Assembly: GCA_016208765.1 (NCBI GenBank)
Contig: JACQXK010000004.1
Location: 148,243-212,242 of the forward strand
From: Candidatus Omnitrophota bacterium
Lineage (GTDB): Bacteria; Omnitrophota; Gorgyraeia; Gygaellales; Profunditerraquicolaceae
DNA length: 64,000 nt
Direction of reading: 5' to 3'
Position numbers and translations under genes: made by a program. Positions 9,301 through 64,000 of the stretch are shown here, piece after piece. The notes under the pieces are model-generated. The model was not told the origin of the DNA. It was given only the letters and a program-made list of their open reading frames with translations, and made no database searches. Each line of letters opens with the position of its first letter. Position 1 is the first letter of the stretch.

Positions 9301-11259
9301 TTCCAAAGTAGCCAAAGCACTAACATTAACGAGGATCAGGCTTCTTTTTTTACCTGAAATCAAATCATCATAATAGCAAACACCTCCTGTCCAAGAACAG
9401 CATGGATAATCTTTGCAAATTTGAGGCTTGCAATCATTATGCAAACAACAGTGGCTTAACCAAGTCAATCTCCCGGATGCATCCATATCCAATACAACCG
9501 CCATTGCGCGGCAAGCAAATGTTTTATAAAGATAAACAAACAAATCTTCCGGAAGGATCTCGTTGCCACAAAATGATCCTAAACTATCTATATCATCAGC
9601 ATGAGCTAAAATCACATCCTTGTTCAAATATCTGCCATCGGCATATTCTTTATTTAATGCACCGGATATTTCAACAGGATGCATAGAGAAGTCATTATGG
9701 TAAGGAAAGAAACAACACAATCCATCTGCGCACTGCTTGCTGCCATCTGGCCTTTCCCCATAAATAAAAGGCAGCAAATCTATTTTTCCATTATTTAGCG
9801 ACGAAGAACTCTCGGCTGGTTTACTATGAACCTGCGCAAACTCAATCTGAAATCTTTCAGAGATGGATAAAGGAGATGAAACGCCTTCTGCGCGAGAAAC
9901 AGAAACGTCAGCTGTTTTACGAAGCACATCCTTAGTTCCAAAAACAAAGAAAGCTGTCTCCCCCCAGCTGGCCAAATAATAATTATTGGTTAGCCCCAAT
10001 TCTCTATTTAAATTAAGCATGCCTCTCTCACCGGCCTTCTTCTCTAGATAATCTAATCCCCACATCCCAAAGAAAATAATCACAGACCTATCTTGAGCAA
10101 GAATTTTAAAAGCATTATTTATGGCTTTTCGCATTTCTACCCGTTTAAATTTGAAATAAACATCACAAAGCATAAAAATCGCAGAAACTGAATTCATTTT
10201 AAAAGGAAGCTTGTTCAAGAAGCTTTCTTTTAAAATATGAAAGTTATTTAAGGGCTTATTTTTGAGATTACTTAGAATAGAATGAATATTCTGAGCATCC
10301 GGCTCAATGCCATAAGTTTGCAAATGGGGATAAATCTCTGCTATTAAACGGGAATCCGCAGCTTCACCACAACCAAAATCAACAACTAAGCTATCTTTTC
10401 TTAAATCAAGTTGCGATAAAATCTTTAGCATTTTATCCCCGCAGAAAATCCTTAAATCAAAAAAATCATTTTTACCCCCGGAATATACATCAGTACAAAA
10501 CGAATACCCATGCTCAGCATCAGCAAATCTTAGCGGGTCGCTCAATTGTCCGGTTACTACCAAATAGTCTCTTAGGCTTTGCATATCCGGATCAAGGACT
10601 TCTTCCACATGAAAATCTATTACAAATTTAGGATATCTTACATTTAGATGCGTTAACTTCGTCAATTCTTGCTCGCTATAAACACCGTATCTTAAAAGCA
10701 ATTCGTCAGGAATAATAATTCTTTCCTTTTCGTTAATCGGGCTAAAAGATTTTCCATAAAGAGGTCCAGATACTTCTATTATTTGACTGACAAGATCCGA
10801 GAATTCCCCTTCCATTGCCGAAGAAGAACAATTCCGGATAGACATAAAATACTTTCCCCTCACAGGGTCACCAGGAATAACAACTCGCGGCATTTCAAAG
10901 ATACGTTCTTTTTCTAGAGAGAAATACTCAACTCTTTCTACCATTAGCGCATTACCGTCAATACCATGAATGGCTGCCCTGATAGTTATTTCGCTTGCTC
11001 CTCTTGCATGGCACCATTGATGAAAGTTTAATGGATTAGCATAATCAATAATCAAGATCTTTCCATACTTATTCAAAAGTGAAAACGCCTGTCTTAAAAC
11101 AAGCTCAATTCCCCTCATGCTGTTTAAAGATTCATTGAACAACACTAAATCAAAACCTCCGGGGGCCGCAATTTCAGGGCAGTTCAAAGCAACACGCTGC
11201 ATAATCTCAATAGCTGCATAAGCACTTCCGACATAAGCACCAGACCAAAAACCACACAT
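1..11259 (-). CDS. Second very long minus-strand ORF (plus coordinates congruent to 1 mod 3), 3'-partial (runs off the left edge, at least 3,750 codons). Very likely the continuation of the giant gene after a -1 frameshift.
   Basis: Manual reverse-complement codon-by-codon translation from the ATG at 11257..11259 (frame opens after TAA at 11266..11268) down to position 1 found no stop and gave coherent domains (methyltransferase motifs, REC, GHKL, transketolase, Fic-like, P-loop kinase, NPPW methyltransferase). Frame consistency was verified at 9259. It is not in the ORF track because it has no in-window stop. The off-frame minus ORF density is consistent with a single open frame. Confidence 0.75.
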   Translation of the reverse strand, partial: MCGFWSGAYVGSAYAAIEIMQRVALNCPEIAAPGGFDLVLFNESLNSMRGIELVLRQAFSLLNKYGKILIIDYANPLNFHQWCHARGASEITIRAAIHGIDGNALMVERVEYFSLEKERIFEMPRVVIPGDPVRGKYFMSIRNCSSSAMEGEFSDLVSQIIEVSGPLYGKSFSPINEKERIIIPDELLLRYGVYSEQELTKLTHLNVRYPKFVIDFHVEEVLDPDMQSLRDYLVVTGQLSDPLRFADAEHGYSFCTDVYSGGKNDFFDLRIFCGDKMLKILSQLDLRKDSLVVDFGCGEAADSRLIAEIYPHLQTYGIEPDAQNIHSILSNLKNKPLNNFHILKESFLNKLPFKMNSVSAIFMLCDVYFKFKRVEMRKAINNAFKILAQDRSVIIFFGMWGLDYLEKKAGERGMLNLNRELGLTNNYYLASWGETAFFVFGTKDVLRKTADVSVSRAEGVSSPLSISERFQIEFAQVHSKPAESSSSLNNGKIDLLPFIYGERPDGSKQCADGLCCFFPYHNDFSMHPVEISGALNKEYADGRYLNKDVILAHADDIDSLGSFCGNEILPEDLFVYLYKTFACRAMAVVLDMDASGRLTWLSHCCLHNDCKPQICKDYPCCSWTGGVCYYDDLISGKKRSLILVNVSALATLEVNNSGFRDGGMFCTEAAMRFLGGQIEKYSLRLGLRAFKINGRFLLLQIPKESVISPVKKDVSVHPAKGSASPIEDNKESAQIKQAAVFNFIGSSRRIIEQLLVCAGKQEFGEEEKGLIIDYGNELLQLVYLIEGACSFDMDFVNVFKDVFGQPAALLMKTKEFRLRKEAIEEQIKHFSDNLERLNKLVEKDLLGQIKKYWIPQDILPASSALEEKADFIRIIEEYNSILNTKPWLPRARLSASKFPGLVHSYNAITGKLISSRESSRKLGGRRLFRVKGHTRISPLISGNFLYDSLEFFNGCTFLIIVVLTTKGEKIVLIHDNLPVYSTRNYYLKTLPDNFDYRNARGYLICRADYLKEYEEILKIASGRGNGFISKASDISVLTYSRLWSYNFLISPQHGIAYIRQNSSTFSAKELWIQRVLLWSDLGFNPFVEVTVSSPVPENNKKGCNIRLPDEIIQKRVLVAEDDDDLQMTIKGHFEHYNSWVRKKGKGVLIEYVMVSNGLEASRLLDSKKSFDILITDCCMPGMTGPVLIRRARNIGLTIPIIAMSSDSDLYRRDVFDAGADFFMPKPLSYSVLIGLAFISLTRPRSSASSSLAGVSSVVEEKSKPGLSESNDLFAVLMRYLDSGDRQGFVNRFPFKDYKFVSTFDEPRETFEYDDGLVSPLSGRCKFMAEDTVREAYKQPTSLEEAAGKVAHELALNTEYIPADRNMIILCRMVQGRNSDKGNIFELLAVDNGLGIDKRIVFPADLFERTRPRRGCGFANLYNLLIWFDAAVLFVEAKGIRDSYEFNYNQACAEILFTRKEIHLEQVGTRIYIAVLSGRGDGNYLPQRIIFKPKNQSSSPATDASLAQEKGPSFPNSSETVSKSIGTVGKQGASSAAVSKSNRIYAREYIESVNKVFRKFKKTVLSSEIALSASFIYGTARILEIRRDWEAKTKEQVLLRVFKGLFEVILREIEYSRKPNKDEEALIKIAVQISRSFCDKYGFSFQDFSKDVLFGRILQHMPTADGMLTPFYHKIILNENKFQACNTNRKIMMILHEAFHYIAQGNGITWVNEGVVEWLAITAYMEFSNQAISLQLARSKTVFMLFSSFETGFKPEFPSPAGSLIGGIIRLILSDYGITIKEFLSIYMRGDMPAFIELFGEETIIKMEELDTYFRSHNSLAFYMGGETLLRDLMIKKISDNSGDAIFNSRNDTSSAAEDKGRFHHNSSSAIRIKGNGPKILFTQKDLELVAAWVRKDAFDMIRMSGAGHFGATYSVTDILVSLYFDGHLIIDDWQNRDRLILSEGHAAASLYSILSIFGFFERRELNNFRKYGSILNAHPCAYLTPGIEASTGSLGQGLGRGIGMALADKIDGRSRHTYVIFGDGESEEGQISEAAAVAPFLGLSNLIAIMDKNNLQLSGPTSKNTRTCNSAFWRMSGWRVIETDGHDFAALGKALRQARKQTKMPTIIIANTIMGKGISYMEKDSLKGNSRWHHGQPSPRLFRQGEAELIAKINLLEKQTRLTLEQLIHKCNSDRPKEPIRKMPEDATDSVEAEAMFFSSEKMIPENNTSAFIQSLIQLANSDTRIILLTSDLTGSHSLGIHVFKKEFPGRYYDIGIREQCMANISAGLADSGKRPVIVVYEAMVNLMAEQIRFIAQDNLPVIVWGAVGGVTSAMGGRSHQSSYEPALYKYIPGLAYFEPSDQNETYQLVKLALNRQGPVYFRTSRLSIPLLDRGCSSQPSKGAYVIKGEDIEHPDVIIIATGAIMKNVLEATSWLRRQNITARIINVTRLDNESLKENLKRLIIDGVPIITIHDAKKEILADTVSGIVTSFPETRNPVLALGINNWGAANGDRDPEATIKDSGLGVGGICASVNEFIIATARRKEERRKGNSGSSAILDSDEGTSSAVLKEPSFPNNLETVSKSIGTVGKRGAHSSVKNSGHFYHNSSSAIEKEVNGPEIATSCELINYLVCANRPLTEEDVILLNCLYFREYDLRSDLAGKYRSGLSCKIRDIVLDEGCQGDIVKTFPIFTGKEISEGVKSILDLLNNNPDKLGIIDLISEAHWRFIMELHPFWDKNGHTIRGVMNIFLNRWGMPKFELKEDSLEESEYFLSQSGRDPEAFNGKDQFSRIPYEAHDAYRKRNFFAYMHKFFLKRINLVGNNEPGFDPEKMCSSALKDKIDGIGLLIECLEQLSMPLEFSLSLYHRLKAAVKANRFIDFMSFILNPKYSSQTKINNCYSKIKDSNGKRAKEASPEELILALFWYAKLAENEGLSRCMKFAFCLWARENKRKNFVTNQLSFCAFELYSYLCMQLDKRSKYAESLRLLKYIYFSEMNEDSGSCNPVPIFWLFYDLNCYSDPLWVLGEIGEILRGDYPFKLKAAAKQAILKVSQFSSVVLETGPPEEGIVLIPFNPQKNPSSFSVGNSGDTILNSKFNSENGASSVVLKGPSFPNNSETVSDSFGTVGKRSATSAALVTTQGRMEVSPIFPDAKATIFPAQAVSLLKELIEDKMLETDFYRPILVAVDGESGVGKSEFCKELVKLMKIDGTLHLRVDDFARPYGEEFLWVFFDELTTESFKRHVESLLLQNRRRVIVIDSIFILLLQDLLGIKFDITVYVWADEKTRYYNLKQRGNVCFGEPRIREFYQVHKISPDYDLIVHNCIGKRLNERESAVWQDEDWQGISRIPAQPKDELERLGLYFNDKYRQFLEKMRYKRVDRYGYNISTIHMLKEKILSAMRLNPDKALVVALDGNSVFETATAEKIKYALGLEGINVVLIHGDLLTRVRMQRHRWQDHELSHNEISVNDNKISSRKIVLRGLLRSIRNFNKGRENELIYELKDLYDEDGCGELTLPPQLLTINRQRSVVIIERNYLLVRQWRKYFDLKIQMLVNPLVGLQRSMPLDNYKGTSRVKEIFWRINTPSFMHYLEHCCLPDIAIISDNWGNFSASSAVSPMWLTNNYDGSIYSASSAVRARIELFHISTLSSSPLRIRATKTTFPNNEPQLADMAVDVIGQNIHTGCRLLEIGTGSGILTAAIAMSSKNVEGVRFVATDINRDAFDDAVSNLSGFKNVKVCCGDLYDCLGPNERFHRIFSNPPWYDKCGHKVLRTLAMY
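600..1130 (-). other. Degenerate PRK-like (pseudokinase) domain: Walker A replaced by ALDGNSVFETAT, family tail retained (VVIIERNYLLVRQWRKYFDLKIQMLVNP)
   Basis: Fold-level motif order retained; the P-loop lysine is lost. Confidence 0.3.
1350..1800 (-). other. PRK/uridine-kinase-family P-loop kinase domain, second copy (VAVDGESGVGKSEF ... VIVIDSIFIL ... DITVYVWADEKTRYYNLKQRG)
   Basis: Walker A GESGVGKS anchored at about 1740..1795. Confidence 0.5.
1918..2030. repeat. Linker cassette copy L1 (core CCCACTGTCCCG at 1943..1954, palindrome GGAAACAGTTTCC; peptide ASSVVLKGPSFPNNSETVSDSFGTVGKRSATSAA)
   Basis: Direct nucleotide-level similarity to copies L2, L4 and L5. Confidence 0.8.
2880..3420 (-). 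other. Fic/Doc-like domain with a variant motif HPFWDKNGHTIR (canonical HPFx[DE]GNGRxxR)
   Basis: Motif at about 3090..3130; the Gly-to-Lys and Arg-to-His changes suggest altered or no AMPylation activity. Confidence 0.35.
3484..3670. repeat. Linker cassette copy L2 (ATGGCAGAGCTGGAGTTATGAT, then the CCCACTGTCCCGATTGATTTGGAAACAGTTTCC core at about 3550, then CACCGCCGAGGATG; peptide SSAVLKEPSFPNNLETVSKSIGTVGKRGAHSSV...HNSSSAI)
   Basis: Read directly. Confidence 0.85.
3750..5640 (-). other. Complete transketolase-like unit: TPP-binding N domain (GHAAASLYSIL; GDGESEEGQISEAA), pyrimidine-binding domain and C-terminal domain
   Basis: Signature transketolase motifs in the correct order over about 620 aa; bracketed by linker cassettes at 5650..5750 and 3484..3670. 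Confidence 0.65.
5650..5750. repeat. Linker cassette copy L3, partial (ATGGCAGAGCTGGAGTTATGATGG ... CTGCCGCCGAGGAGG; peptide TSSAAEDKGRFHHNSSSAI), without the PIGTVGK core
   Basis: The 24-nt ATGGCAGAGCTGGAGTTATGAT is identical to that in L2. Confidence 0.7.
6140..6200 (-). other. HExxH zincin-like motif with a downstream Glu (MMILHEAFHYIAQGNGITWVNEG)
   Basis: HExxH plus NEG 14 residues later (gluzincin-like spacing); domain limits unknown. Confidence 0.3.
6650..6780. repeat. Linker cassette copy L4 (CTTACCCACTGTCCCGATTGATTTGGAAACAGTTTCCGAGCTGTTAGGGAAACTGGGCCC; peptide GPSFPNSSETVSKSIGTVGKQGASSAAV)
   Basis: Nearly identical to L2 over about 60 nt. Confidence 0.85.
6960..7170 (-). other. GHKL/HATPase_c-like domain 3 (LAVDNGLGIDK; GCGFANLYNLL) immediately after the REC domain
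   Basis: D-box and G-box motifs. Confidence 0.4.
7560..7930 (-). other. Response-regulator receiver (REC) domain, canonical (VLVAEDDDD ... DILITDCCMPGMTG ... AMSSD ... MPKP)
   Basis: Acidic pocket, phospho-acceptor Asp, Thr/Ser and Lys positions all present. Confidence 0.6.
10130..10480 (-). other. Class-I SAM methyltransferase domain (VVDFGCGEAADSRLIAEIYPHLQTYGIEPDAQN)
   Basis: Motif I plus an acidic residue in the GIEPD stretch; in the downstream frame. Confidence 0.5.
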
Positions 11260-11268
11260 CCATTTTTA
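11184..11268 (-). other. Frameshift junction splitting a class-I SAM methyltransferase domain (motif I, VGCGDGS, is in the upstream frame; post-I and motif II/III, FDLVLFNESL...LLNKYGKILIID, are in the -1 frame). Candidate one-nucleotide indel near the TTTTT/GGTCTGG run at 11238..11250.
   Basis: The giant frame reads ...ILSVGCGDGSLEKLLLKNGCVVFG then nonsense and a stop. The overlapping -1 frame reads ...GAYVGSAYAAIEIMQRVALNCPEIAAPGGFDLVLFNESLNSMRGIELVLRQAFSLLNKYGKILIIDYANP, matching the equivalent stretch of the two other methyltransferase copies in this gene (GISVEGWELDRQLY / GINVFGCEFNNSLY). Confidence 0.6.
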
Positions 11269-14200
11269 AGCAAAAGTTTTTCTAAGCTTCCATCTCCACA
11301 GCCTACTGAAAGAATCCTGGTTTTATTCCCGGCACAAGACTCTAATATTAATCCAAGAATGAATTTTCTGTATCCTAAGCATGATATCGTATCCGTACTC
11401 ATTGTTTTCCTATCTATGTTGTCATAAATTTGCCGCAATACCTGGGAGTAAACCCTCTCCAAGAAAGAACTCCAATTATCAATCGGAGCCAAAAACGCAC
11501 TAATAATTGCCTCGTTTAAAGGAAACTTAGTTACACTTCCTTCCTTTTGATAGGCTTCAGCGCTTTTCAAATCTTCAAAATATAAATAAAGCAGAATGAA
11601 AAAACGCAATAAATCCTGATAGCTTAATAAATTAGCAGAAAAATAGCTGACAACTTCTCTCAGGAAAACGCATATTTTCAGTTCCACTTCTTCTCCAAAC
11701 ATGGAAGATAATCTAAGAATAAGAATTCTATCCGCTTCAGCATCATTAACCATGCCAGAAAAATTTTCGTTATCAACCATGCAAGATACTTTCTTAACCA
11801 AGCCACTATGCTTTCCATCATCGGATAATAACTGCAAAAGGCTATTTAAGTCATATTTACTTACTGTCTTACTCCCAAGCGCAGAAGACACACAAGAATT
11901 ATCCATGTAAACTTCACATAAATTTCCATTAGCAAGAGATTTAAGAACGGAGGAAGAACTATATCCATTGTTAACGATAGAGAATTTTGTTCCCAGATTC
12001 ATTCGGCACCAAAAACTATTGTTGATTATTAAATCGTACTCTGGAGTAAAAGCGTAAATATGCGGCAGCTTGATAGACATCTGTATTGCTTTCTCATTAG
12101 AAACTCCCCTTGATATAAGATTCCTTCGGCGAGTGGCCGGACTGGCGCGAATATTTAATTTTATATCAAACTGCGCACCCAACTTAAGAAGATATTCTTC
12201 AAGATACAATGCTTTGAACCCCTCAACAATAAGCACCTCTGTCCGGACATCTTTCAAAACCAAAGATACCTTATCTCTCAAACTATACCAATCAATTATT
12301 TCACATAACTGTTTAGATTCATTTTTATAATTTACGACAAAGTCATCAATATGCAAAACTTGCACCCTATAATCTTCTCTTAAAAGCGCATAAGAAATAG
12401 TTGTTTTACCCACAGCCTTCTTCCCATCAATGCAAACTAACACTGTTGTCCCTAAGGAAAGCTGGCCTTTTTTAAAATCAATTACCTCTTTTAAATATCC
12501 AAATGCCCATTTTGCCGGAACCGGTATTCCTAAAAAGTTCATAAATAATGAGGCTAATAATTTCAGGAAATTAATCGTTCTATAGATAACTGGCGACGCT
12601 TTAATATTTTGACCCACCGCAGAAGAAGAAATTGAGTCAATTTTAAACATTAGCTTCTCGCGAAAATCCCTATATCCTTTTTGCTTATTTATAAAATCAT
12701 AATAAACAACATTCCTGCTAATATTGTCGCGGAATGTTTCATCAAACCCTATCAATAACGTTGGAACAAGTATTCCTTGTTTCTCAATATCTCTTATCAA
12801 TCCAAGCCCCTGATTGTCTTTTAATTCGCAATCAATAATAAACACATTAAATTTTTTAGTTCTTAACAAGCATAAAGCCGCATCTTTGTCGCTAACAAAA
12901 CTACGCTCAATTTCAATTGATCTTCCTTGGTCATTTAAGAAATAGTTAAACGAATCAAAATACTGAATTATATCTCTACGCAATGGAGCAAAATCAGTTA
13001 CAACTAATACCTCCACAGTTATACTACTAGAGCTCGCTCTGCCTCTAATCTTAACCGCAGATGAAACGCTCCTCTCTTTGTTAATATTACCTAAAGTTTT
13101 TCTTAGTTTATTTTTAAGCTCCTCTGGGCCTTTTACCAATATCGCCTTTATTCCGATTGCCTTTGCCGGTTCAATATCAGTTTGCTTGTTATCCCCCAGA
13201 GAAACACATAAATCAGCAGAAACTCCCAGCTGATTAAGAAGCCACACAAAATCCTTAACACCGGCAGAACCCTGAGCAGAATAAACCGCGTTAAATAAAT
13301 CATAAATTTCTAATATTCTAAGCACCTCTTCAGCAGTTATTTTTGCGGAACTTGTATACAGAATAAATTTATACCTGCCGGTGGCTTTAAGCTCAGCAAG
13401 AAGCATTTTTAATTCCTGGTCAGGAGTTTTTAAATATTTGCTAACTTGAATACCGGCTTGAGCCATAAATTTCTCTTCAGCAGATATCCCAAGAGCTTTT
13501 AAAACTTCTACATCCTGCACCCAACTGTTGCTTTTACCCTTTAATTCATTTCTAACAACACTAAACTTCCTCTTTGCGTGATTTATTGCAGGCAATTTTA
13601 ATTGTGCTTGGATTAGCGCATAAACTAAATTCATATATGCAGCGATAAGGCTGCGGCAATTATGCAAGGTTTTGTCTAAATCAAAAATTAGATAATAAAT
13701 CGGGCTGGATGAAGTTGGGAAGTTATAAATAGCAGGAGCTGTGGCAGCTATTTGTGCCGGCGGTGCCCTGCCACGCACAGCTAAATCCCAACCTGAAATA
13801 TTAGTGATGTTTCTATTTTCCTTATCCAGCGCTGAAGACGCCCGGCTGATTATTGCGTTAGCAGCAGCATCCGGACTAATCTGCCAGAAATATTCTGCGG
13901 GTTTTTTCCTAAAATCACTGCGATATCTTGACCATGCTCTATCTAATTTATTCTGCGGTATACTTTTTGTAAGGCGCAAAAAACAATCAGCTTGTATTTG
14001 CGACCACGTCCGCCATAACGGCTTGGGAAGGCCCGCAAACCTTTCCCAGTATATATCCGGAATAATTGCCGCGTTTATTCTTCCAAGCCCTTGGCGCTTT
14101 GCAGTTAACCCAGTAACAAAGAAACCAACGGAAGAATAATACTCTGTTAACCCGTTCTTCAATTTTGCTTCTTCTTCATCCAAACCGCAAATAGCCCAAA

Positions 14201-17200
14201 GCACAAAATGGTGTATCTTGATCATAAAATTTCCCAAATTACTTATTTCTTGAACTCTCTTTGACTCGTAATTATTCCTTTCAGCGAATGCATAGGCAAA
14301 GTTCAACTCTTTACCGGCGGCTACGCGAAAATCAGGCCCATAATCCTGCAGCTTGAATTTCAAGCTATCCCAGCGATCTTTGGTTACAGGAAAAAAGAAT
14401 TTAGTTTCCTCACCTTTCAAGAGTTTTAAAATATCAAACCCATATGCCTGCTTAAGATAAAATAAAGCCGACAGATCATCCATAGAAAGAGGCTCGCCAA
14501 AATCACTGATATTAATCCCAACGCCCTTCCCATTCTTTTCCCGGAGGGAATATATAATTTGAATAAGCTCATTAATGAATTCTGCTATTTTTATAGTTAT
14601 ATTACTCCTAATATTTAAATCTTGCTGCAACTCTAAAACGATTTTTCCTGCTATAATTTCACCAAAATTTTCCGGCGGGCTTGCAGAATGCTCCATATAC
14701 ACCAATGCTTTTTCTGCTCTGGCGGCTGCTGGAGAAGAAACGACATCATCATTTCCTACTTCTGTCAGAAACTCCCGCAAAAGTTTTGTATAACCTCCTA
14801 ACATGTGAACTTCGTGCCCGCGATAAAAATCTACAAAACCACAAACCTTAACACCATTATATTCTAATTTCTCTACAATCTTTTGCTGACAATCAAATAC
14901 AACTATAGGATCCCGAGTGCCTCCCATCCAAAATACCGGACAAGTAATTTTAGAAATTATATCCCCATCAAACACGCTGCCTTCTTTTTCCAAATCCATA
15001 TCTCTTATCATTAAAATATCCCAAATAATTGTAGAAACTGGAGTTTGCTTACCACGAAAAAATAAATCATCAAAAAACTTTTCAGGAATAGGATTAAATA
15101 AATGTGCAATTCTGCCGAATATTTTCTTCACAATACTGCCTGATAATTTAGAATTTAAAACTCCGTCACGATAAAGCTTGTCAGCAAAACTAAGCATCAT
15201 TAAATAAGCCTTAAGGCTCTTTTGGTTATTCCTAGAGGCATTATCAATCGCCTTAACCGCGCCAAGAAAATACTTCTCAAATAAATAATAAAACTTCTTC
15301 AATGATTTCGGGTATAAAGAATGCAAGAAATTAGCTGAACCCGCAGAAATAACCAGCGCTCTGACTAATCCCGGTTTTAAAGCAGCGAAGCACATTGAAA
15401 GCGCAGCACCCATACTGTGTCCAAAAACAAAAGCTTTTTCTATATTTAACTTCTCAAAAACCAATAATAAATCATTTGCCCTTACTTTTGCCTGAGGAGG
15501 TGCTGTGCCTAATGTTGAACCGTTATACCCACGCCAAGAAACACAAACGATCCTAAATCCGTCTTCAAGTAAAGCCCGAATCTGACAAGCCCAGTCTTTT
15601 AAAGGATCTCCCACGAGAAAACCATGCAAAAATACAGCTGTTGGGCCATTATCATTGCCGCCATACATAAATTTTATTTTGGCACCATCACTAGTAATAA
15701 TTTCGCTGTGACAAAAATTAAGAGACCTTAAGAAATGCACTGCTCCTTCCCATTCCGAAAAACCGCCAGCATAATCCCCAAATACTTCTTCAGGCTTCAT
15801 TTCAATTGGCGATGAAGAAAAATCTCCATTTTTAAAAATAACTCCGGCATCTTTCTGGCTAAAACCACCATCAATAGTAAAAAAGCGATGCGAGAATTTA
15901 TTTCTTAATAAATCCCAAGGATAATATTCAGGCATAAAAACTACAAAACAAGCGCCTTCTTTTAATGTCTGGGCAACATAGGCCTCCAATAAATCCAAAC
16001 GATCAGTACCACAACCGCCATAATAATGGTAAAGCAGATTATAATCTCCCAAAGGCGCCTTTAAGAAATCTCCTTGCATGAACCTAACCTGTCCTTCTCT
16101 TATCGTTCGTCTCTTATTTGGCGATAGATACAGAGATTGCCACGAAAGAGCAAGTTGATACAAAGAGTTGTTAAATTCACAGCCGAAAACATTAATGCCG
16201 AATAAACAAGCCGCCATAACATCAAAGAATCCATTTCCTGAACCAAGATCAAACAAATTAATCTCGGAAGGATTCAAATGAATTTCTCTTATTGCCTTAG
16301 ACAATAAAACAATTGCTTCCGGCCCGGAGGGCCAATGCAGGCCCTTTTCAGTTTTCTTTTTTAAACCTGAGAAATATTTCTTAAAGAAATCAGACGCGTT
16401 TTCTCTGCTTATCAGCTCATCAAATTGCCAATTTAAGAAACTTATAATAAAATCTAATGCTCTTTCCCAAGCCTGCTTGTCATATTCATCGGCGCTTAAA
16501 GGCAGGCGATTATTTTCTATGACCGCCGAGGAGGCGCGGGTTTTGATTGCTTGGGTTAACGCAGATGAGGAGCCGTTAGAAGGATTACAGCGGTTATCAG
16601 ATTTAACTTCCTCCCAAATCTTATAGAAGAATTTCTTAAATTCTGAGCTTAAGTTTTCAGGAGACGTAAAATTGACTCTGAGCATTTGCTCAAAATCTTC
16701 ATTAGAGCTTTCCTGGAGATAATACCGGAATTGATTATAAAATGCTTCTCTCTCATAAGCTGAAGCTAAATATTCTTGAGATGAACGATAGGCGCCTAAT
16801 TTTATATCGGGATTACTAACCCACTGCTTGTGATGTGTTAATACGTGTACTAAAATCAGGGGCAATTTAGATGAATTAACATAATTTTGGTTAATAATAA
16901 TTGCGTAGCCCTGCTCAGAATTAAGTTTTGTTTTCAATCCTTGCTCAAATACAACAAATTCCTCAAGAATAACTGGTTTTGAATAAAAAGTTGCGCCAAA
17001 AATATACGTGCCAAGCTTTTCAAAATAGTAATCCGGCATGGTAATAATATTTAGCGCTCCTGCCTCTTCTTGCGTTATCCCGAAGTACTTAACAACATCC
17101 GGGGAAACTTTATTAATATCTAAACTCCTGGAATCATTCCTATAAGAATTAACAAATGTCCGATAAAAATCATCTCTATATAAAGATTCAATCGTGCTGC

Positions 17201-53200: not shown

Positions 53201-56200
53201 CAAGGCCGGGAGAAGAATGTAACACTCCGGCATTAGCATCAAAAAGGTAACTCCTTATTCTGTTAACCCTGCCTGAAGCAGTTTGCGAGGGGCGAAAAAC
53301 AAAAGTATCCAAGAATAAATCGCTCGCCATAACCAAATCTACGCTTTCATACATGAATTTACCAAACGACACTAACGCTGCGATAACTGAAAGATTAAAA
53401 TAATCACCTTCTAATAAAAGCGGCCTTTGGCCGTCTTTAGAGTTGAATGTTAAGCCATCCACAGTAAACACATCGTCTTGTTGTTCATGCACCCTGACAA
53501 ATAATTTCTTACCATCAGGACGGGTAAAAATTAGAGGATATGTCTCCCTGTCATCCCGACTCTTGGAAGCACGCCAGCCAAGAAAATTATCAATTTTAAG
53601 AGGGATATTGTGCCAAAAAGCGAATCCTGTCCTCAAAAGACCGAGCAGAGTAACACGGTTATTAGGAAAAATTAAGTATTCTTTTTTCTTCTGCACTGAA
53701 TTATCAAAGCTCCTGAATTCAACCGTATCATTGGGATAATAAACATCAATAACCGCACCATTCCTTGATGTTTTCGCCGTATGTTTAGGAATCAGTTTTT
53801 CCCCGCTTCCGGACAAAATTATCCCCTCCGGCCTAAGTTCAAAAACTACAAAATTGCTTTCATCCTCTCTATCACTAATAACCATAAACCTGCTGTGATG
53901 CGGCATATCTCTATAAATATTAAGCCGGTGATTCCCGGTTGTCCTGTAATAAGAAGCTAACGAAATAACATCTCCTCCAAAAAAAATATTTCTGCTGTTG
54001 TTAGTTTCGGGCACAGGGCAGATCCTTCTAAGGAGGCTAAACAAGATATTTTTTCTCTCTGAGCCGAATTTATGCGCAACGCCTAAGCAAGCGTCCCTAA
54101 ATGCAATAAACGCTTCAGAAATATCAATAAACAAATTCTCTTTATTATCTCCCTTGGCCACTTCACTGATAATCACACGGCCATCTAACTGAAATTCTAA
54201 AACTATCGCCTTTTCTGAATCGCGCAAAATAATCTCAATTTTTCGGTTTGTAATTAAATAAAGCGACATTTCAGAAGAGGTTGAATGCGGGCCGTTAATA
54301 TTTCTTGCGGAGATTCTACCAGAAAGCATATCAGGAATAGTGATTCTTACGTCGGAAAACCTGAAATTCCTACTAATAGGCTCATCTGTATATTCCACTA
54401 AAACAACCATACCTAAATCTGCTGACTTTAAGTCATGAGTTTTCATCCAAGAATACAAGGCTGCTAACTTTTTTGACGCTGTATCAGCAGTAATGCTGGG
54501 CATACGCAAAACAACTTCAGTAGGAGTGGGAGCTCGTCCAAATTCATTCTTAAAAGCAGTTACAATACCCATAATTTCTAATTTCCTCTGTTCTGTAAAG
54601 ACAGCGGATTTTGCCTTTCTTGCTGCAACACTCCTTTGTACTGCTAAACTGGGAAGTTTTTCTTCCGTGCCTTGCGCGTTAGTATTTGCAGCAGAAGAAG
54701 CGCTGTTAACTGCCACCACCGCGCCTACTGGAGAACTTGCATCTTGTTTATATAATGCTTGGTTTGCCTGCTGGAAATCTAATTTATGCGCGCCCTCAAT
54801 ATCAACAGACCTCCCCCCTAATTGCTTAATTAAATCCATTTGCCTGATTCTGCCGTGATTGACATAAAGCATCTGATTATGCCTGCCCCTAAAAAGATTC
54901 GCGATAGCTGCCAAGCCCAGCAGTTTACACATTTTTAAATCTTCAGGACAGGTATCTGCTGAACGATAAAAGTAATCCACTTTACCTGCCAAGCTTACGC
55001 CTAAGCCTGCAGCGGAAAAAACGTTTCCTATAAGCATGCCGGCATTCTCTAACTTTGGATGGCCAAAGGCATCAAGTTTTTTCGGGTCTGAGCCAGCTTC
55101 AAAAGCAGCTTTAGCTATAGGATTCTTTCCAAAGACCCTGGTTAATACAGCTGTATTTTCGCCATAATCCTTGTTTATCTTAACCCCTTCGGAAACAATT
55201 ACTATCGCCCAACCGTGCTTTTTATAATAAGCTCCGACATCAACGGTTAGTTTGTCCAAATCAAGGTTCGGCTCCTCAGGAATCAACGTACGGCTTGCCT
55301 GTATCTGCCTGCCGATTTCTAATGCTACGAACCCGGAATTCCTCCCAAAAACATCTACAACCAAGACTCTCTTGGTGCTGATTGCATCAACTTTTCCGTA
55401 AACTATAAGCGGTATTGCTGCCTGCACGAAGCTTAGAAATCCATAGGTAGTGGCAGTTGACTCAGGCAAAGCAATATCATTATCCATAGTCTTGGGTAAA
55501 CCGATAATCGGAAATTCCGGATGGTCTCTGTGTAAAAGATAAGAAACGCTATTCGTGTCATCGCCTCCGCAGGTAATCAGGCCGTCAAGCCTTAACGATC
55601 TAATATGTCTCCAGAGCAGGCCTGGAACACCCTTAGCAACATTTTCTTTACTATAGGGATTTGTTCGGCTGGTACGGATTACTGTCCCTCCCTGAGTGCG
55701 GTGCGGCTCGAGTTTATGCAATAAAAGAGGCTGAGCCTGGGAGATTAATTTTTCATCCACGAGCCCTTTCCAGCCTTCCCAAATACCGAATAATTCAATT
55801 CCAAACCTAGCTGCGGCTTTTGCCGCCCAATAAATTACCTGATTGTGCCCTGATGCCGGGCCGCCTCCGGTGAGAATACCGATACGCCTCATCGGGGGGA
55901 GGACGTCTGGAGTGACAGCGCTAGCAGCAACCAGTTTACCTGCCACCACCGCGCCTACTTTGTAGGGACGGTTCTGAACTGCGCTTGAAAGTGTCCCGCC
56001 CGGGGACGCTTCTAACCGTGTTTGAGAACCGTCCCTAATTATGGGGCTGGAACCATTTAATGTGTTTAAGAGTAATCCTAATATCTCTAATTTTTTGTTT
56101 TGCTCTAAGTAAAAGAAATACGGGTGAATGAAGATGGTGCCTTCAATAATTAGACAACCGGCAACTTTTGATTTGGTAAGTAAATTTCGCGAGGTAACTA

Positions 56201-59200
56201 AAAAATTAACCTCAAGCGGCGGAGCATTCTGTTGACAGCCGTTAGTTTGTTGAAACAATTTATTTAAAAGCGCTTCCAGATTTTCTTTACAAAATTCTGC
56301 GGATTGGCTGACTATTTGACCCGCCTCTTTCCCACATTCTACAATACTCAAAGATATTCTTCCTTGATCTTGATCAGGCTTTAGCGACAAAAACACATAA
56401 AAACCTTCAGGAAATGTTGCCGGCATACCAGACGGCAACTGCGATGGCACATCTAATGAATAACGTATCACTCCACCAAGCTCTGCGAGGCTGGATGATG
56501 CCTTACTCCGGCTAGCGGCGGATTCTTCTACAAGCCCCTTTGAAAACTCAATCTCAATATATGCGTAGCCATCTTCACTATTCCCGGCAACAATCTTGCC
56601 GCCTAAAATCTTCGTTACAATGTAATCCATGCTAAACATTCCCATGCCATGCCGGGTTTGCATCTTTTTTGAAGTTACTCCGTCTTTAAAAACCAACTGC
56701 CTGCCTCTTGCAAAATCATAGAGCAGGAATTCTTCAGGAAAAGCTCCGGTGTTACTGGCCCTAAAGATAATATTACCGGCATTATCTCTGCTGATATTTA
56801 CCTTAACTAATAATTTACTTCTATCTGCGGCCGCTGTAATTCCATATCCAACACCGCTAAACACGTCTTTAATATTACGCAGGATATTCTCAACTACTCT
56901 CTGCATCAGGCGATTATGCAAATTAATAATCAGATCCACGGCGCTCATGTCCTCAGAATAAATATTAAAGACAACAGCGCGGCCATTAAGATCAACAGTA
57001 ATACTCTGGCTGAATTGGCCCGCCTCCGGCAAAGTTACCGCGCAGCCAAGTTCTCTTTCTGCTGCCTGCGCAAATACCGTCTTGAGGCTTACCGGATCAC
57101 GATTGATCACCGTATTTGTCGCCATAGCAATATAATCCATTAATTTATCTGAAAGCGGTCCATCTTTGCCAAGGATATAAGCGCGCATATCCTGGATTAA
57201 TAATCTGGTTTCTACAGCAACTTCCGAAGGCTGGCTTAATTTTGTGCCTATGGCTTCTATTTCTGTTTCAAGTTTCTTTAATAAATTGACCACTCTGAAG
57301 AGCTTACCCGGAGAATCCAACGGCCCAACAAGCTCGGTATAACCTGATTCTAATTCTTCCAGAATTTTTGCTTTGACGCTCCTTGGAGTATTCATCAACC
57401 TCAAAAGATGATAACGAATCATTGCATAATTACGATGCCTAAAACTATTCAATACTATCTCTTTAACCTTCTTGTTATAAAGCCCCTTGAATCTTCTATA
57501 AACACCCAGATAAAAACTCAATTGCTGGTTCAATGCAAGTATGCTCGGCTCTAAGCTACTTACTTTTTGAATCGCGGCCAAAAGTTCTTCTCGGGCTGCC
57601 GATTCTTTTTCTACAGTATCAAGCATTTCATAATTTTGTCCGGCTTCCTGTAATGCCCTATTCGTATCAAGGGCCCAAGCATTATGCAAAATATCACCCA
57701 AAGTTTTTATCGCAGAAAACAGCTCTGTCTCAGGAAGAGATCTTGATAATCTAATTAATTTAGGAATAATATAACCTAAATCATGAACCGCTGCCCTTAA
57801 GATCCTGGAAAAATGCTCAATTCTCTCAATCAGAGAGCGCTCATTTAAGGCCTCTTGAGCCTGTAAGAGCTGCTCAGGAGTATTTATCCCAATAATTTCA
57901 TCAGCATCAGCGGTTTTAAGCAGCCTGACTATCTTGTTCGCAGTTATTAAAATATCAATTAAATAGGTAAACGGTTTATTTAATAACTCGGCGCATGCTA
58001 ACAAGTCTGCAAAAATGTTCTTTTGCAAGACACATATACCACCATTAAATAAACTTACTTTTTCCAGGTCTTGTGGGGTAAAGGTACGGCTGCCTTTTAA
58101 AACGAAACTTTGTTGTTCCAAAGCACGATCATAATCCCCTGACTCAATGATGCCAACAGCCCTGCCTTCTTCAACAGGTATAACCCCATATGTCCGGCAA
58201 GGCACAGAGTCTCTTTCCCGAGGCATATCAGCAACAATGATACTGGCATCGGCAACAGGATATTCAGGAAGATGATAACCTAAATGGCATTTGATCAATG
58301 AAAGCAAAGTCTCAGGCCTTATCCCCGGCACATCAGCAGGCATAATCATAATATGACCCTGGTTCTTCATCACTTCTAAAATTTTATCTTTAGACTGTTT
58401 TAAGACATCTGCGGTTTGAGAACCAATACATTCGTGAAATTGGATATTCAAATCTGTATAATTATTCCTGATATACTCACACACATAATCTTCTGCCACT
58501 CCAGTTAAGACCAAAATCGGAATATTATTGTCCGTGCCTTTTGAAACATTCCTTAAAGTATCCAAAATATAACCCAACATCGGTTTAATTTGCCCTGCAA
58601 CAGCAATACCTAATCCGAGTTTTATGCGAATGCCCATATCAACCAATAATTTCTTAATCCTTCCGCTCTTGCCACCGGCAAGTAATACTATGCCGACATT
58701 TTTAACTGCGCTGTGTTTATCAGTAGCTTGTTCATCATTAAAAATTTCTGACATAGATACAAGCCTTACACCACCGGGAGTGGAAGTTGCGGCGCTTGAA
58801 GCCGAATAAACTTTATTTTCTTTATATTTATCAAGCATTTGGTTTATTGTTGCGGCTTTTTCTCTGATTTCTCCTGAATTTTGAATAAAGTCTTTTGATG
58901 ATAATCTGGTAATTTCTTCTACTATGGGCCGTATTTGTTCTACAAAAGAGACAATATGCTTCCTCCTAAATTCCCCCCAAGTAACCCCTAATAATTTCAC
59001 ACGCTTAAATTTCATTTTATCAAACCCCTGCAGGCCCAAAAGAAAAAGGTGTTGTGTACTTTGAGTGCAAGCCAATACTGGATCGTCTATCTTAGTAATC
59101 TGCAAGAGCCTTAACAGAAATCTTTGCATTTCCCAAAGGACTTCTTCTCTGATTTCTGCAGGAGTATACTGATTAGTATTATTCATAAGAAAGTAAGTAT

Positions 59201-62200
59201 TAATTACCTGCATCCTGTTCTTGCAGATATGGCAAAACAGGTTGAATACCGTAAGCCTTAACTCTGCCTCAGTCATTTCTAAACTTGAACGCGGATTGAT
59301 AGATAAAAGAACGATCCTCTCTTTCTCACAACCACTTTGTGTTTGTAATACTGCTGCAAAAGGCCTGCCAAAACGGCTTAAAACTTTGCTCAATAATGAG
59401 TTATTTATTTCTTCAGGGGTGAAGTTAATTCCAAATTGCGCCATCAAATCTGCCAAATACCTGTTAAGCCTAGTTGTGACATTCTCCCTTAATCTTTCTT
59501 CTATATTAAAAGGGTTATTGGCTTTATGTTTCTTGTCTGCTGCAAATATCTTCTCTAATAATTTTTCTTCTTCGCGGTTCTTTCTCTTTGTCGCATTTAT
59601 CAGGCCGATCAAGAAAGTTACAGTCTCAAGATCAAGCGCTGTTCTAATCTCTACTCTTTCCACATCCGCAATAACCGGCTTTAATAAATCCGCCACCTTT
59701 GAGGCAATGCCAAGATACCTTGCCTGAGGGCTAAGGAACATGTCATCAATAAAAAATAATAACCCGTCTTTTGAGAAACCGCCCCTGAAACATCCCCATG
59801 CTCCGGAATTAACCAGGATTTTAAACCTTTCTTCGTTTTCTTTCTTTGAAGCTAAGAATTCTATTGCCAGAGAGTATTCAGTCTCTCTTTTGGGTTTTTC
59901 CAAAGCAAAGATCCCGGATAATCTTAACACCATCCTATTTATTACAGAAACACTAGTCTCCGGCAAGTTAATCCAGCGGTCATTAAACGCTTCTCTTAAT
60001 GTCTGCTCAAGCGACGATGAAACAGTCTGAGATAACCCTGCCACCACTGCGCCATAATTAGCAAAGCTGGATAAAAAATTAGAACCATCTCTATTGCTTA
60101 GAGCGCTACTTGCGGCAGGCCGAGTCACCTCAGCAGATTTTATGAGAATCTCTTCTAAAAACTCTAATGTTGCTTGTGGCGAACGCCCAATATGAATAGC
60201 CTCAGGAGTAACTGCTTTAAACTCATCATTAACTGCAAGAATATTACCTTTAGCTAAACATTCCTTGATTGGATCATCATTTCCGTTTTTATAAAATTCG
60301 TCACCAAAATAAAAGAAATTAATTTTATTTTCTTTCTTACCAACACCTAAAGAATCCGATATTGTGCTTATGAAATCCTCTAAGGCTACATTTTTTTGAG
60401 CAGTAGCACCGGTAATATCAATTGTTGTTCCTCCTCCAGTCCGGATATTAAAAGAAGCGCTTTTATCACCCAAACATCTACTGAAAGATACCATTAAGCT
60501 TTTCCTAGGGTCAGTTTTGTCAGACAATTCTGGGATAGGTTTTACAGCTAAGCTTCCATACATTGTTTGGCCATCATCAGTAACTATCACTCCTCTTGTT
60601 TCTACCCATGGAAATGCCATCTCTTTTTTTACTCCAGTATTTTTAGCTTCATCCTTAAAATCTTTAATATCTTGCGAAGGATAATATTGAATCGTAAATG
60701 GCGGATTCAGGCTTTCTTTCCAGGGTGTTTGCAGAACGAAATATTTATTGTTGCTTTGCGCCGAGTTTATAAACTCTTTCAAAGCTTCCCCCGTTAACCC
60801 AAAATTATTAGACGCTGCATTTTCTATAGCCTGATTGATAACTTTCTCTATAACCTCTTTATTCATCGCATGTTTTAGATTATATTTCCTAATATTACCA
60901 TCATTAAGATCTTCTTCTCCTCTATCAGTAAAACCTATTTTTGTTGCGCCTCCGCTAACATAAAATGTTAAATTTACGAAAGCTCGTTGATCATTTCTCA
61001 TCTGTTTCTTTATAGCATCAACAATCCTGCTCATTTGTTCCTCTTTTGAATTACCCGAAATAATAGCCACTTTCACGCCTTCTCGCAACAACCGCATAAA
61101 AACATAAGCAAGGCGCGTATAATTAGTAACCGATTCTGACTTCTTAGGAAGGATGGTTTTATCAACGTCAAATACAAACCCACCCTGCCGCCTGATTCTT
61201 GCCCAATTTCCTATGATATATGAAATAACTCCTCCAACAATAGGGTCATCTTTAAACAACCCTAATTGTCCATTTACCCACAACCTTCTATCAGCACTTA
61301 ATGTTGCAAGGACCAACCTTCCTGCATCTTTCTTCAGATCAACTATTTTAAAACCTGCCTTTTTAATTCCAAAAAGAGAAATAATTGCTTCCCGCAACTC
61401 AGTAGAAAACATTTCTATTTCATCTGACTCAGCCTTAACTGCAACACCGCTAACTCTGCCCATAGACACATCGGTAACCTCAGTTAAATCATTAAAGGTT
61501 CTCTCAACATCCTCATCCCTTAAATAACTATCTAAGACATAATCAACGTAACTGCTAATTTCTTTATCAAACTCAACTTGTGCATCACTTTGCATATCGC
61601 TTGCGATAAAACGATAAATTTGCTTCAGCTTTCTTAACAACTCATTGCCTCTTCCGTCACGCTCCCTTCTCATTACTCCAAGATTTATCTTTACCGCCGA
61701 TTTAGCATTTTCAATCGCTTCTTTAATTCCGGGAACAATGAGCACCGGAGCGATATTCTTTTCCAAAGAGACATTTGAATAAATAATTACATCAGCTGTT
61801 TCTATCGCTTCTTTTGCCTCTTGAGTGATGGAAACTGTTTTCGCACCCCGCGTTGAGGAAAAACTGCTAATAGCTTCCGCTACTTGGGGAACATGTTTTT
61901 TATCTATTTGCCTCGTTGAGATTTCTATATCTTTCTTTAATACCTGCATTTCTTTTGTAACCTCAAGTACTGTAAATCTATTTGGTAAACGATAAACAAT
62001 GTCTTCTGTTACCCTGGCTAATTCATCAATAAAGGATTGAACATTAAATTCATGAGTATCGTTATTAACCAACCACATACCAATAATTGGCGACTTAGAT
62101 TTATAATGCGTTAAACTTTCTTCTGAAAAGTGGATTGTTCCATCTTCCCTGATAGCAACCAGATGCTGCCTTTGCTCTGTCGGAAGAATTACCCGATCTC

Positions 62201-63917: not shown

Positions 63918-64000
63918 CCTTTCAATAACTGCCCCATCCCAAGTTACAAATGCAGCAAAGGCCGCATTAATTAAATATTTAAGGTACCCCGTAGGCCCTG

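Follow-up and report, generated by a model that had tools for sequence, protein, structure and literature searches.

The stretch of DNA considered here (the window) comprises 64,000 nucleotides of contig JACQXK010000004.1 from a Candidatus Omnitrophota bacterium and has a G+C content of about 0.39. It consists almost entirely of a single coding region on the minus strand, specifying a giant protein that is punctuated throughout by a short recurrent peptide motif, and it is this motif and its possible role that are the subject of what follows. The listing of open reading frames (ORFs) reported just one of at least 300 amino acids (aa) within the window, at 11184..63917 on the minus strand and 17,577 aa long, which is the extent that had been given in a preliminary description made from the sequence alone. 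This extent does not do the giant frame justice, since the frame contains no stop up to window position 64000 and the coding region continues downstream in another frame. Because the frame is open to the edge of the window the gene probably begins upstream, and the GTG at 63917, which is the first start-like codon and the point from which the 17,577 residues are counted, need not be its start. This frame (11184..64000, minus strand) is here called ORF A, while ORF B (1..11265, minus strand) is a 3755-aa open frame that differs in phase from ORF A and runs off the window; between them they contribute 21,332 residues. The two overlap by some 80 nucleotides within one class I S-adenosylmethionine (SAM)-methyltransferase module (frame junction at 11184..11300, minus strand), motif I of which (ILSVGCGDG) is encoded in frame A, and GGFDLVLFNESLN, including FDLVLFNESL, in frame B. 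As the same module is continued across both frames, ORF A and ORF B most likely represent a single gene of over 21,300 codons split by a frameshift, which may reflect an indel in the assembly, a genuine shift of frame or programmed slippage. Close to the junction (window 11184-11300, minus strand) there is a T5 run together with repeated TTATGCAGC, and in a related contig (L162) a phosphofructokinase (PFK) is likewise divided between two called genes.

The modules of the chain were mapped using sequence matches to Pfam, NCBIfam and the PDB; Pfam covers about one fifth of the chain, with many families tiling it and none of them dominating. In ORF A (for which, as throughout, window coordinates refer to the minus strand) the domain matches comprise a CofD-like module (aa 537-795), a GlmU-like nucleotidyltransferase (aa 1740-2040), a pyrophosphate (PPi)-type PFK (54744..55892, aa 2676-3058), an EamA/DMT transporter (52110..53033, aa 3629-3936), an HD domain (aa 7303-7428), a histidine phosphatase of the His_Phos_1 family (38175..38714, aa 8402-8581), a first alpha/beta-hydrolase (36969..37319, matched over aa 8867-8983), a methyltransferase (aa 15871-15953), a second alpha/beta-hydrolase (14898..15707, aa 16071-16340), a HAD hydrolase (13116..13691, aa 16743-16934), a weakly matched REC-like module (12681..12899, aa 17007-17079) and a P-loop kinase-like module of the AAA_18 family (12090..12437, aa 17161-17276), as well as several TPR blocks and several helix-turn-helix (HTH) modules. 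In ORF B there are methyltransferases, a REC domain (aa 1152-1234), a complete transketolase (3868..5607, aa 1887-2466) and a further AAA_18 match. Internal repeats are almost absent from ORF A, and are too few to be of use in defining module borders. The embedded PFK looks like a working enzyme: residue 2676 aligns with residue 1 of crystallised PFKs, the best matches among solved structures and NCBIfam models include PPi-dependent enzymes, and the GGDD and PKTMDND motifs are invariant. The embedded PFKs, both in the window and in 18 related loci (L001-L018), have GGGPASGHN in place of the canonical GGGD(A/C)PG(M/L)N; canonical stand-alone PFKs of 343 aa are also present in Omnitrophota (P0065, P0072, P0089 and others).

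According to the preliminary description, the tripeptide SSA would be expected by composition roughly 7 times in the chain and is seen at least 30 times, the motif being given there as SSA[VIL]. The actual figures are stronger than this, SSA being found 39 times in ORF A against 6.85 expected, and it is the most enriched tripeptide there, just as SSAV and ASSA lead the tetrapeptides and ASSAV the pentapeptides (the tripeptides SSS and ASS are enriched too). The form SSA[VIL] is indeed enriched (28 occurrences, 1.7 expected), but as a definition it is too narrow, as the proline variant SSP[VIL] (15 against 0.83) also belongs to the motif; taken together as SS[AP][VIL] there are 43 occurrences where 2.5 would be expected. 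If the preceding residue is included, giving [ASV]SS[AP][VIL], 37 matches remain, and for these the comparison with shuffled sequences that had been proposed as a check was carried out using 2000 global shuffles and 2000 local ones (within blocks of 30 aa), yielding mean counts of 0.52 and 0.72 respectively and a maximum of 4. Depending on the form chosen, the observed counts exceed those from composition and from local shuffles by a factor of 17 to 70. ORF B, which serves as an independent replicate, contains 11 sites against 0.64 expected, and this, together with the shuffles, establishes that the enrichment is real and not a matter of composition.

A logo built from 54 sites in ORF A and ORF B has serine at positions 0 and +1 without exception (54 each), Ala or Pro at +2 (36 and 18), an aliphatic residue at +3 (V 24, L 16, I 14) and chiefly small residues at -1 (A 19, S 17, V 9). 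Conservation is confined to these five positions, -1 to +3, with none farther out. Permuted orders of the same residues are rare in the chain ([VIL]ASS 3, SAS[VIL] 0, ASS[VIL] 1, SS[VIL]A 1), and the motif is an order-specific pentapeptide, [A/S/V]-S-S-[A/P]-[V/I/L]; a low-complexity Ser/Ala linker was rejected as its source, given the result of the local shuffles and the scarcity of these permuted forms. The heptapeptide PVGAVVA, which had also been described as recurrent, is not, there being just two copies of PVGAVV and one of PVGAVVA in ORF A; the shorter VGAVV occurs four times (0.02 expected).

The sites had also been thought to be encoded by similar nucleotide strings, but this holds for a few of them only. 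The two serines are specified by AGY and TCN codons in any mix, and among the 39 SSA sites there are 26 distinct 9-nucleotide strings, slightly fewer than the 28-36 predicted from gene-wide codon usage, while the G+C content at third codon positions (GC3) of the motif equals the background and codon choice is close to that of the gene as a whole. In two of the related loci nearly every site or every site is coded differently (13 of 14 in L006, 17 of 17 in L015). Given this mixing of AGY and TCN, the diversity of the codings, the unconserved flanks and the scarcity of internal repeats, selection acts on the peptide and not on the DNA. A repeated DNA element, or any other DNA or RNA element, was rejected because of the codon diversity, and so were internal translation starts, there being no purine-rich Shine-Dalgarno sequence and the valine codon often being GTT or GTA.

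As to where in the chain the sites lie, mapping them against domain borders (a second check that had been suggested) places them preferentially near module ends. Using Pfam domain termini corrected to the profile ends, the nearest motif is at a median distance of 48 aa from N-terminal ends (circular-shift p = 0.003) and of 16 aa from C-terminal ends (p = 0.00015). Compared with random positions, the sequence flanking the sites is less hydrophobic (0.31 against 0.37, p ~1e-5) and richer in P/G/S/T/N/Q (0.36 against 0.29, p ~1e-5). Lengths of the segments between consecutive sites are bimodal, in that there are 11 short spacers of 12-43 aa (4.5 expected, p = 0.002), no segments at all of 45-99 aa (5.0 expected, p = 0.004) and 33 of 100-2544 aa.

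Sites follow the PFK, precede EamA and flank both the HAD and the REC-like module, just as had been reported. The PFK occupies a 417-aa motif-delimited segment (motifs at ORF A 2644 and 3061), bounded by LSSAV (55977..55991, aa 2643-2647), which lies about 30 aa ahead of the PFK N-terminus, and ASSPV (54726..54740, aa 3060-3064), which lies 3-6 aa past the conserved PFK end and forms the first half of a double site SSPV-GAVV-x5-ASSA; the region conserved with the 18 related loci ends at ORF A 3055-3062. EamA spans the interval from ASSAL|QLTSKQK to KNKATS|SSPV, its roughly 307 residues being the normal size for the family; the first of these sites (ASSAL, 53034..53048, aa 3624-3628) is 5-6 aa ahead of the first membrane helix, and directly after the last helix there is a double site made up of SSSPV (52095..52109, aa 3937-3941) and ASSAV (52056..52070, aa 3950-3954). 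The HAD hydrolase is a 215-aa segment in which SSSPI (13698..13712, aa 16736-16740) is followed by just four residues (YYLI) and then by the catalytic motif I, FDLDKT; VSSAV (13053..13067, aa 16951-16955) comes 24 aa past the end of the HAD_2 profile. The REC-like module lies within the next motif-delimited segment, of 146 aa, and SSSAV (12615..12629, aa 17097-17101), about 8 aa past its end, opens the 246-aa segment that contains the P-loop kinase-like module. Similarly, ASSAI (50475..50489, aa 4477-4481) is 14 aa ahead of a TPR block, SSSAV (38073..38087, aa 8611-8615) stands at the C-terminal end of His_Phos_1, GSSAI (37410..37424, aa 8832-8836) lies about 31 aa ahead of alpha/beta-hydrolase 1, which sits within a 243-aa motif-delimited segment, ASSAV (16521..16535, aa 15795-15799) opens a 239-aa methyltransferase segment, and SSSPI (15804..15818, aa 16034-16038) precedes alpha/beta-hydrolase 2 by about 33 aa. 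In ORF B, VSSPV (7975..7989, aa 1093-1097) is about 31 aa ahead of the REC domain, the transketolase fills a 667-aa motif-delimited segment, with SSSAI (5650..5664, aa 1868-1872) about 14 aa ahead of its N-terminus and GSSAI (3646..3660, aa 2536-2540) about 40 aa past its C-terminal domain, and SSSPL (373..387, aa 3627-3631) lies about 2 aa ahead of an MTS/PCMT-type methyltransferase. Judged by such matches, the motif-delimited segments are whole enzymes in the cases examined.

Further evidence comes from related giants. In a scan of species-representative genomes, the 18 loci that best match the PFK module all belong to Omnitrophota genomes or misnamed relatives (36-57% identity), a similarity by which the window too is placed in Omnitrophota, and in nearly all of them the PFK is embedded in open frames extending from one end of the 21-kb locus to the other. 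Apart from the PFK, no module of the window could be aligned with these loci, and module order is not conserved. A word-indexed protein search yielded stand-alone PFKs for the most part and not a single giant, whereas the exhaustive search of representatives did return them; a metagenome scan with the PFK profile found generic PFKs (28-39% identity) and no further giant relatives among the matches listed, and a homology search with 888 residues from the C-terminal part of ORF A (aa 16690-17577) found nothing at E <= 1e-5.

The same motif is enriched in several of these relatives: SS[AP][VIL] occurs 14 times in L006 (0.63 expected), 17 times in L015 (0.93 expected), 20 times in the 5534 aa of P0121 and 5 times in L004 (0.8 expected), and it is present, if more weakly, in P0133 and P0226; the count is zero in L001, L005, L007, L010 and L011, so that the motif is restricted to certain lineages. 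Its position relative to the PFK is particularly informative. At the N-terminal junction the sequence is SSSPI-HR-IGILTGGG in both copies of L006, in P0121 and in P0226, SSPI-RR-IGILT in L008 and SSSPL-IHR-IAVLT in L015, while P0158 has SSSAV at this junction; stand-alone PFKs begin M-R-IGVLTGGG. Thus in three lineages SSP[IL] ends 2-3 residues ahead of IGILTGGG, at about the point where the stand-alone enzymes have their Met start. At the C-terminal junction the motif lies 4-6 aa past ANQ[AS] in the window (ANQALYKQDA-SSPV), L004 (ANQALGLSVN-SSPL), L006 (ANQSLVGA-SSAV), L015 (ANQAFKIIT-SSPL) and P0121 (ANQALAGA-SSAV). In L015 and L006 motif-delimited segments match the full PFK profile from 3-4 residues past the motif, and L015 also contains a complete glycogen synthase (GT5 + GT1) in one motif-delimited segment of 553 aa. 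A comparison between L006 and P0121, whose modules are 36-89% identical, showed the motif to be kept at 7-8 of the 9 alignable junctions, even across indels, with identity at motif residues (27/36) exceeding that in the flanks (94/179; Fisher p = 0.016); on the evidence of this alignment, the motif is under purifying selection. A neighbour-joining tree of the PFK modules is star-like, and does not separate an ancestral motif from repeated gain.

In other lineages, different motifs are found at the same junctions. Thus DGG occurs 10 times in P0123 (1.17 expected), preceded by L, F or T, and DNGG 4 times in P0137 (0.02 expected), with D(N)GG present also in P0134, P0140 and P0122; locus L002 was likewise grouped among relatives of this type. 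P0127 has six copies of EKSYPA[GE], one of them 8 residues ahead of the PFK, and P0148 (which is locus L017) has six of D-x-A-M-L, one of them 8 residues past the PFK, and these two motifs look like further lineage-specific junction motifs; YPLx[VI]P occurs 9 times in L001. Spacings between such alternative sites range from 90 to 1036 aa and are mostly 100-860 aa. At the N-terminal PFK junction the sequences are ASL-DNGG-DLSKLIKR-IGILT (P0137), SLK-DGG-VIPVIRR-VGILT (P0140) and GEKSYPAEMNRPMKR-IGILT (P0127), and at the C-terminal junction ANQAMGMAQA-DGG (P0134), ANWALFPERMK-DAAML (P0148) and ANQALVEQSKANA-YPLPVP (L001). The YPLx[VI]P motif has a further peculiarity, in that all six of the HExxxH motifs (YHEL[IV]SH) in the 7063 aa of L001 lie 111-120 residues past a YPLxVP; a module with YPLx[VI]P at its start and HPYFF...ILYHEL[IV]SH farther on is found in L001 and also in P0124, P0128 and P0155. 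This may be a candidate for a cis-acting metalloprotease-like module. Orphan YPLPVP sites exist too, for instance directly after the PFK in L001. L010 contains six copies of a roughly 50-aa element that includes hydrophobic stretches, ..V-KQSL-..FMFLGLFGS.G.RN..SPR.PPW (KQSL 6, against 0.06 expected).

The explanation that we consider best fitted to these results is that the motif is a lineage-specific recognition site for endoproteolytic processing of a polyprotein, a proposal that we are inclined to believe and to doubt in about equal measure. The product of the gene would then be a giant chain of ordinary enzymes and other modules, punctuated at the module borders by the pentapeptide, either as single sites or as double sites 12-43 residues apart, and a site-specific endopeptidase encoded outside the window would cut this chain into enzyme-sized products and short spacer peptides. 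The scissile bond would lie at or directly after the aliphatic residue, because a cut in that register would reproduce the N-terminus of stand-alone PFKs. As to the class of protease, the classic preference of subtilisins and elastases from P4 to P1 is for small-small-Ala/Pro-aliphatic, as in the substrates Suc-AAPF and MeOSuc-AAPV, and the motif resembles this, a subtilisin- or elastase-type enzyme being one candidate; the interchange of Ala and Pro at +2 would be accounted for, since P2 of such substrates takes either residue. The resemblance is one of substrate sequence, and the searches of the window gave no S8 or S1 protease. That the position of the site is fixed while the motif itself changes from lineage to lineage would be in keeping with co-evolution of site and protease of the kind seen in viral polyproteins.

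It was already proposed in the preliminary description that the chain might be processed in the manner of a polyprotein, and this idea remains the best fitting of those considered, on account of the whole-enzyme segments, the shared junctions and the replacement motifs, but the part of it that relied on embedded proteases is not supported. The Pfam, NCBIfam and PDB sequence searches turned up no peptidase family anywhere in the 21,332 residues of the window. The HExxH and transglutaminase-like protease modules that had been supposed to lie within the chain are not borne out in ORF A, which has no HExxH and no detectable peptidase or transglutaminase module. The sole HExxH of the window is HEAFH in ORF B (6163-6177, minus strand; aa 1697-1701), within a motif-delimited segment of about 330 aa that matches no family and bears no relation to the HExxxH module of L001; for neither of the two was there a significant Pfam or PDB match, the best being to PhageMetallopep at E = 0.048. 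Neither a C39 nor an S8 domain was detected there, an NCBIfam match to a C39-family model being confined to the TPR part of that model, and there was no Pfam or NCBIfam match to a C80 cysteine protease domain of the MARTX type. The analogy that had been drawn with the Ala-X-Ala sites of signal peptidase fares no better. Small residues at -1 and -3 would fit the SSA form if the cut came after Ala, but 18 of the 54 sites have Pro there, and signal peptidase I does not accept Pro at -1; type I signal peptidase sites were rejected in any case, as there is no hydrophobic h-region ahead of the sites and their flanks are less hydrophobic than random positions.

The lack of a detectable peptidase in the window is one of several points that weigh against processing. 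Two matches to the motif, LSSPL (52734..52748, aa 3724-3728) and KSSPI (52668..52682, aa 3746-3750), lie inside membrane helices of EamA, where they are probably due to chance (about 2.5 chance matches are expected), and there are many junctions without the motif, for instance within ORF A aa 11754-14297 and at the His_Phos-transketolase junction of L015. The topology of EamA does not force cleavage, as a transporter of this kind whose two ends are inside the cell could stay uncut in a cytoplasmic chain, and multi-enzyme proteins that remain uncut certainly exist (AROM, CAD and fatty-acid synthase). A single-sequence AlphaFold2 run on ORF A aa 16690-17577 was uninformative, giving a mean predicted local distance difference test (pLDDT) score of 33.

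If the chain does in fact stay whole, the motif might be a linker-borne site for a Ser-directed modifying enzyme, such as a kinase or an O-glycosyltransferase, or for a docking partner. This we think unlikely, but there are points in its favour: two invariant serines followed by a small and an aliphatic residue are reminiscent of bacterial Ser/Thr modification sequons (that for O-glycosylation in Bacteroidetes is D-[ST]-[AILVMT]), the linker location and the selection at peptide level are accommodated equally well, and no protease was found in the window. What it leaves unexplained is why the motif should end exactly at the native N-terminus of the stand-alone PFK, why there should be double sites around spacers of 12-43 aa, and why other lineages should place unrelated motifs free of serine (D(N)GG, DxAML, YPLxVP) at the same junction; in addition, the known general O-glycosylation systems are periplasmic, whereas the modules here are cytoplasmic-type enzymes. 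A passive role, whether in capping domain boundaries, as a hinge or in pausing translation so as to assist the folding of modules, would agree with the presence of the motif in linkers, and Ser-Ser-Pro could well slow peptide-bond formation, but two thirds of the window sites have Ala in place of Pro, the near-average codon choice shows no marking by rare codons, a hinge would not require five ordered residues with an obligatory aliphatic one, and the motif is missing from the same PFK junction in sister lineages. We regard a passive role as improbable.

Improbable to a like degree, in our view, is the idea that the motif was left by module shuffling as a scar, or serves it as a handle, being the conserved end of mobile in-frame cassettes that recombine into non-syntenic mosaics. 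The very fluid module order, with only the PFK alignable to the 18 related giant loci, is what such shuffling would produce, composite cassettes (SSP-VGAVV-x-ASSAV and EKGxSFxNxxETVSxPIGTVGKxGASSA) do recur, and the diversity of codings is, as noted above, slightly low. However, conservation at the DNA level would be expected of a recombination site, whereas here AGY and TCN are exchanged and nearly every site is coded differently, and the motif appears to be held by purifying selection at orthologous junctions while the flanks drift, so shuffling could account for the origin of the motif but not for its maintenance. Finally, an origin of the motif by chance or from the composition of low-complexity linkers rich in Ser and Ala, to which the enrichment of SSS and ASS might seem to point, can be set aside with practical certainty, being refuted by the local shuffles (0.72 against 37), by the permuted orders (0-3) and by the replication of the motif in independent sequences.

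It is instructive to compare processing of this kind with known systems. Viral polyproteins are cut at short consensus sites (Q|G for picornavirus 3C, LQ|S/A for coronavirus Mpro, [S/T]-x-A|[S/A]-G for birnavirus VP4), and they share with the window chain a short consensus at the borders of functional units, its dependence on lineage and the presence of double sites with spacer peptides. They differ in that the present gene is a cellular one with housekeeping enzymes, for which the likeness is by sequence and the protease is postulated, and no viral polyprotein is known to reach more than about a tenth of the length of the window chain. MARTX toxins, too, are very large bacterial proteins with independent modules and unstructured linkers that contain short cleavage sites; they are cut after Leu by an embedded C80 cysteine protease activated by inositol hexakisphosphate (InsP6), the toxins being released into host cells, whereas the window has no C80 domain, a different motif and a cargo of metabolic enzymes. 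As for C39 peptidases, their double-glycine rule calls for Gly-Gly with a hydrophobic residue at -4, and the hydrophobic-D-G-G of the sister lineages fits this rule at the same junctions, but the window motif lacks glycine and hence is not a double-glycine site.

Giant proteins of Omnitrophota have been described before, including a class of multi-enzyme metabolic clusters (Nielsen & Lui 2026, bioRxiv 10.64898/2026.06.07.730766), and the window gene, judged by its sequence, matches this class: its relatives lie in Omnitrophota host loci, its frame exceeds 10,000 aa, many Pfam families are tiled along it, and sequences are largely unique between lineages. C39 domains have been reported in Omnitrophota giant proteins (10.1101/2023.11.21.568195; 10.64898/2026.06.07.730766), and cleavage of such proteins via C39 or S8 domains has been proposed, with the cleavage points stated to be unknown (West-Roberts et al. 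2023, 10.1101/2023.11.21.568195); the window differs in having neither domain. No description of the junction motif was found in the literature, including both of the Omnitrophota giant-protein papers, and the words cleav-, polyprotein, linker and motif are absent from the text of Nielsen & Lui (10.64898/2026.06.07.730766). The motif is thus a first concrete candidate for the cut sites of these proteins. For bacterial giants of 10,000 to 147,000 residues it is an open question whether they act as a single chain or as cut pieces, and as it was the missing cleavage points that blocked further analysis (West-Roberts et al. 2023, 10.1101/2023.11.21.568195), the junction motif makes the question testable.

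A more general proposition, which we put forward tentatively and would judge somewhat more apt to be wrong than right, is that the Omnitrophota giants are true cellular polyproteins, each lineage having its own punctuation motif and a co-evolving protease, and dozens of enzymes being released. The punctuation motifs would then include [A/S]SS[A/P][V/I/L], D(N)GG, DxAML, EKSYPAG and YPLxVP (the last next to the HExxxH module), and the enzymes released would include core glycolytic and pentose-phosphate ones. Should processing be confirmed, this would mean that a cellular organism runs housekeeping metabolism by way of a polyprotein, with fixed stoichiometry from a single gene, and if the giants in general are polyproteins the motif described here would give the first map of their cut sites. 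Should processing be refuted, the linear motif would still be new, and of use in annotation as a marker of domain borders. The observation from which the analysis started has accordingly been confirmed and extended, and the interpretation then placed upon it is partly supported.

The remaining sites, beginning at the N-terminal end of ORF A, are SSSPV (63144..63158, aa 254-258), ASSAL (60099..60113, aa 1269-1273), GSSPI (56040..56054, aa 2622-2626), TSSPV (53145..53159, aa 3587-3591), ASSPI (51600..51614, aa 4102-4106), ASSAV (48219..48233, aa 5229-5233), SSSPI (45546..45560, aa 6120-6124), VSSAL (45018..45032, aa 6296-6300), ASSPL (40425..40439, aa 7827-7831), ASSAV (39702..39716, aa 8068-8072), VSSPL (39342..39356, aa 8188-8192) and SSSAV (37461..37475, aa 8815-8819), followed by ASSAV at 36681..36695 (aa 9075-9079), which belongs to a double site SSAV-GAVV..SSSAY, ASSAL (36585..36599, aa 9107-9111), SSSAV (33258..33272, aa 10216-10220), two copies of SSSAI (29307..29321, aa 11533-11537, and 29250..29264, aa 11552-11556) and ASSAV (28656..28670, aa 11750-11754). 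Between the last of these and SSSPV (21024..21038, aa 14294-14298) the chain is free of the motif for 2544 aa (aa 11754-14297, window 28659-21027), a region that has many weak matches to HTH or sigma-70 region 4 domains and may represent a module array of another kind. Beyond it lie VSSAV (20931..20945, aa 14325-14329), VSSAI (20865..20879, aa 14347-14351), VSSPL (20328..20342, aa 14526-14530), SSSAV (19209..19223, aa 14899-14903), SSSAL (16557..16571, aa 15783-15787), ASSAL (13827..13841, aa 16693-16697) and VSSAL (11877..11891, aa 17343-17347). In ORF B there are in addition VSSPL (9868..9882, aa 462-466), ASSAL (8665..8679, aa 863-867), TSSAV (3613..3627, aa 2547-2551), SSSAI (3484..3498, aa 2590-2594), CSSAL (2809..2823, aa 2815-2819) and two copies of ASSAV (484..498, aa 3590-3594, and 424..438, aa 3610-3614).

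Some sites form part of larger recurring cassettes. One of these is SSP-VGAVV-x(3-5)-ASSA[VA]; another, longer one is EKGxSF(P/Q)NxxETVS(N/K)(P/S)IGTVGKxGA-SSA, copies of which lie at window 17844-17960 and 41229-41290 and at ORF B aa 1506-1557 and 2550-2600. Within the two window copies in ORF A are the sites ASSAV (17844..17858, aa 15354-15358, in PIGTVGKRG-ASSAV) and ASSAL (41229..41243, aa 7559-7563, in PIGTVGK-x3-ASSAL). Between ORF A and ORF B the longer cassette is 50% identical over 52 aa, and its being shared by the two suggests that some junctions may have spread by duplication.

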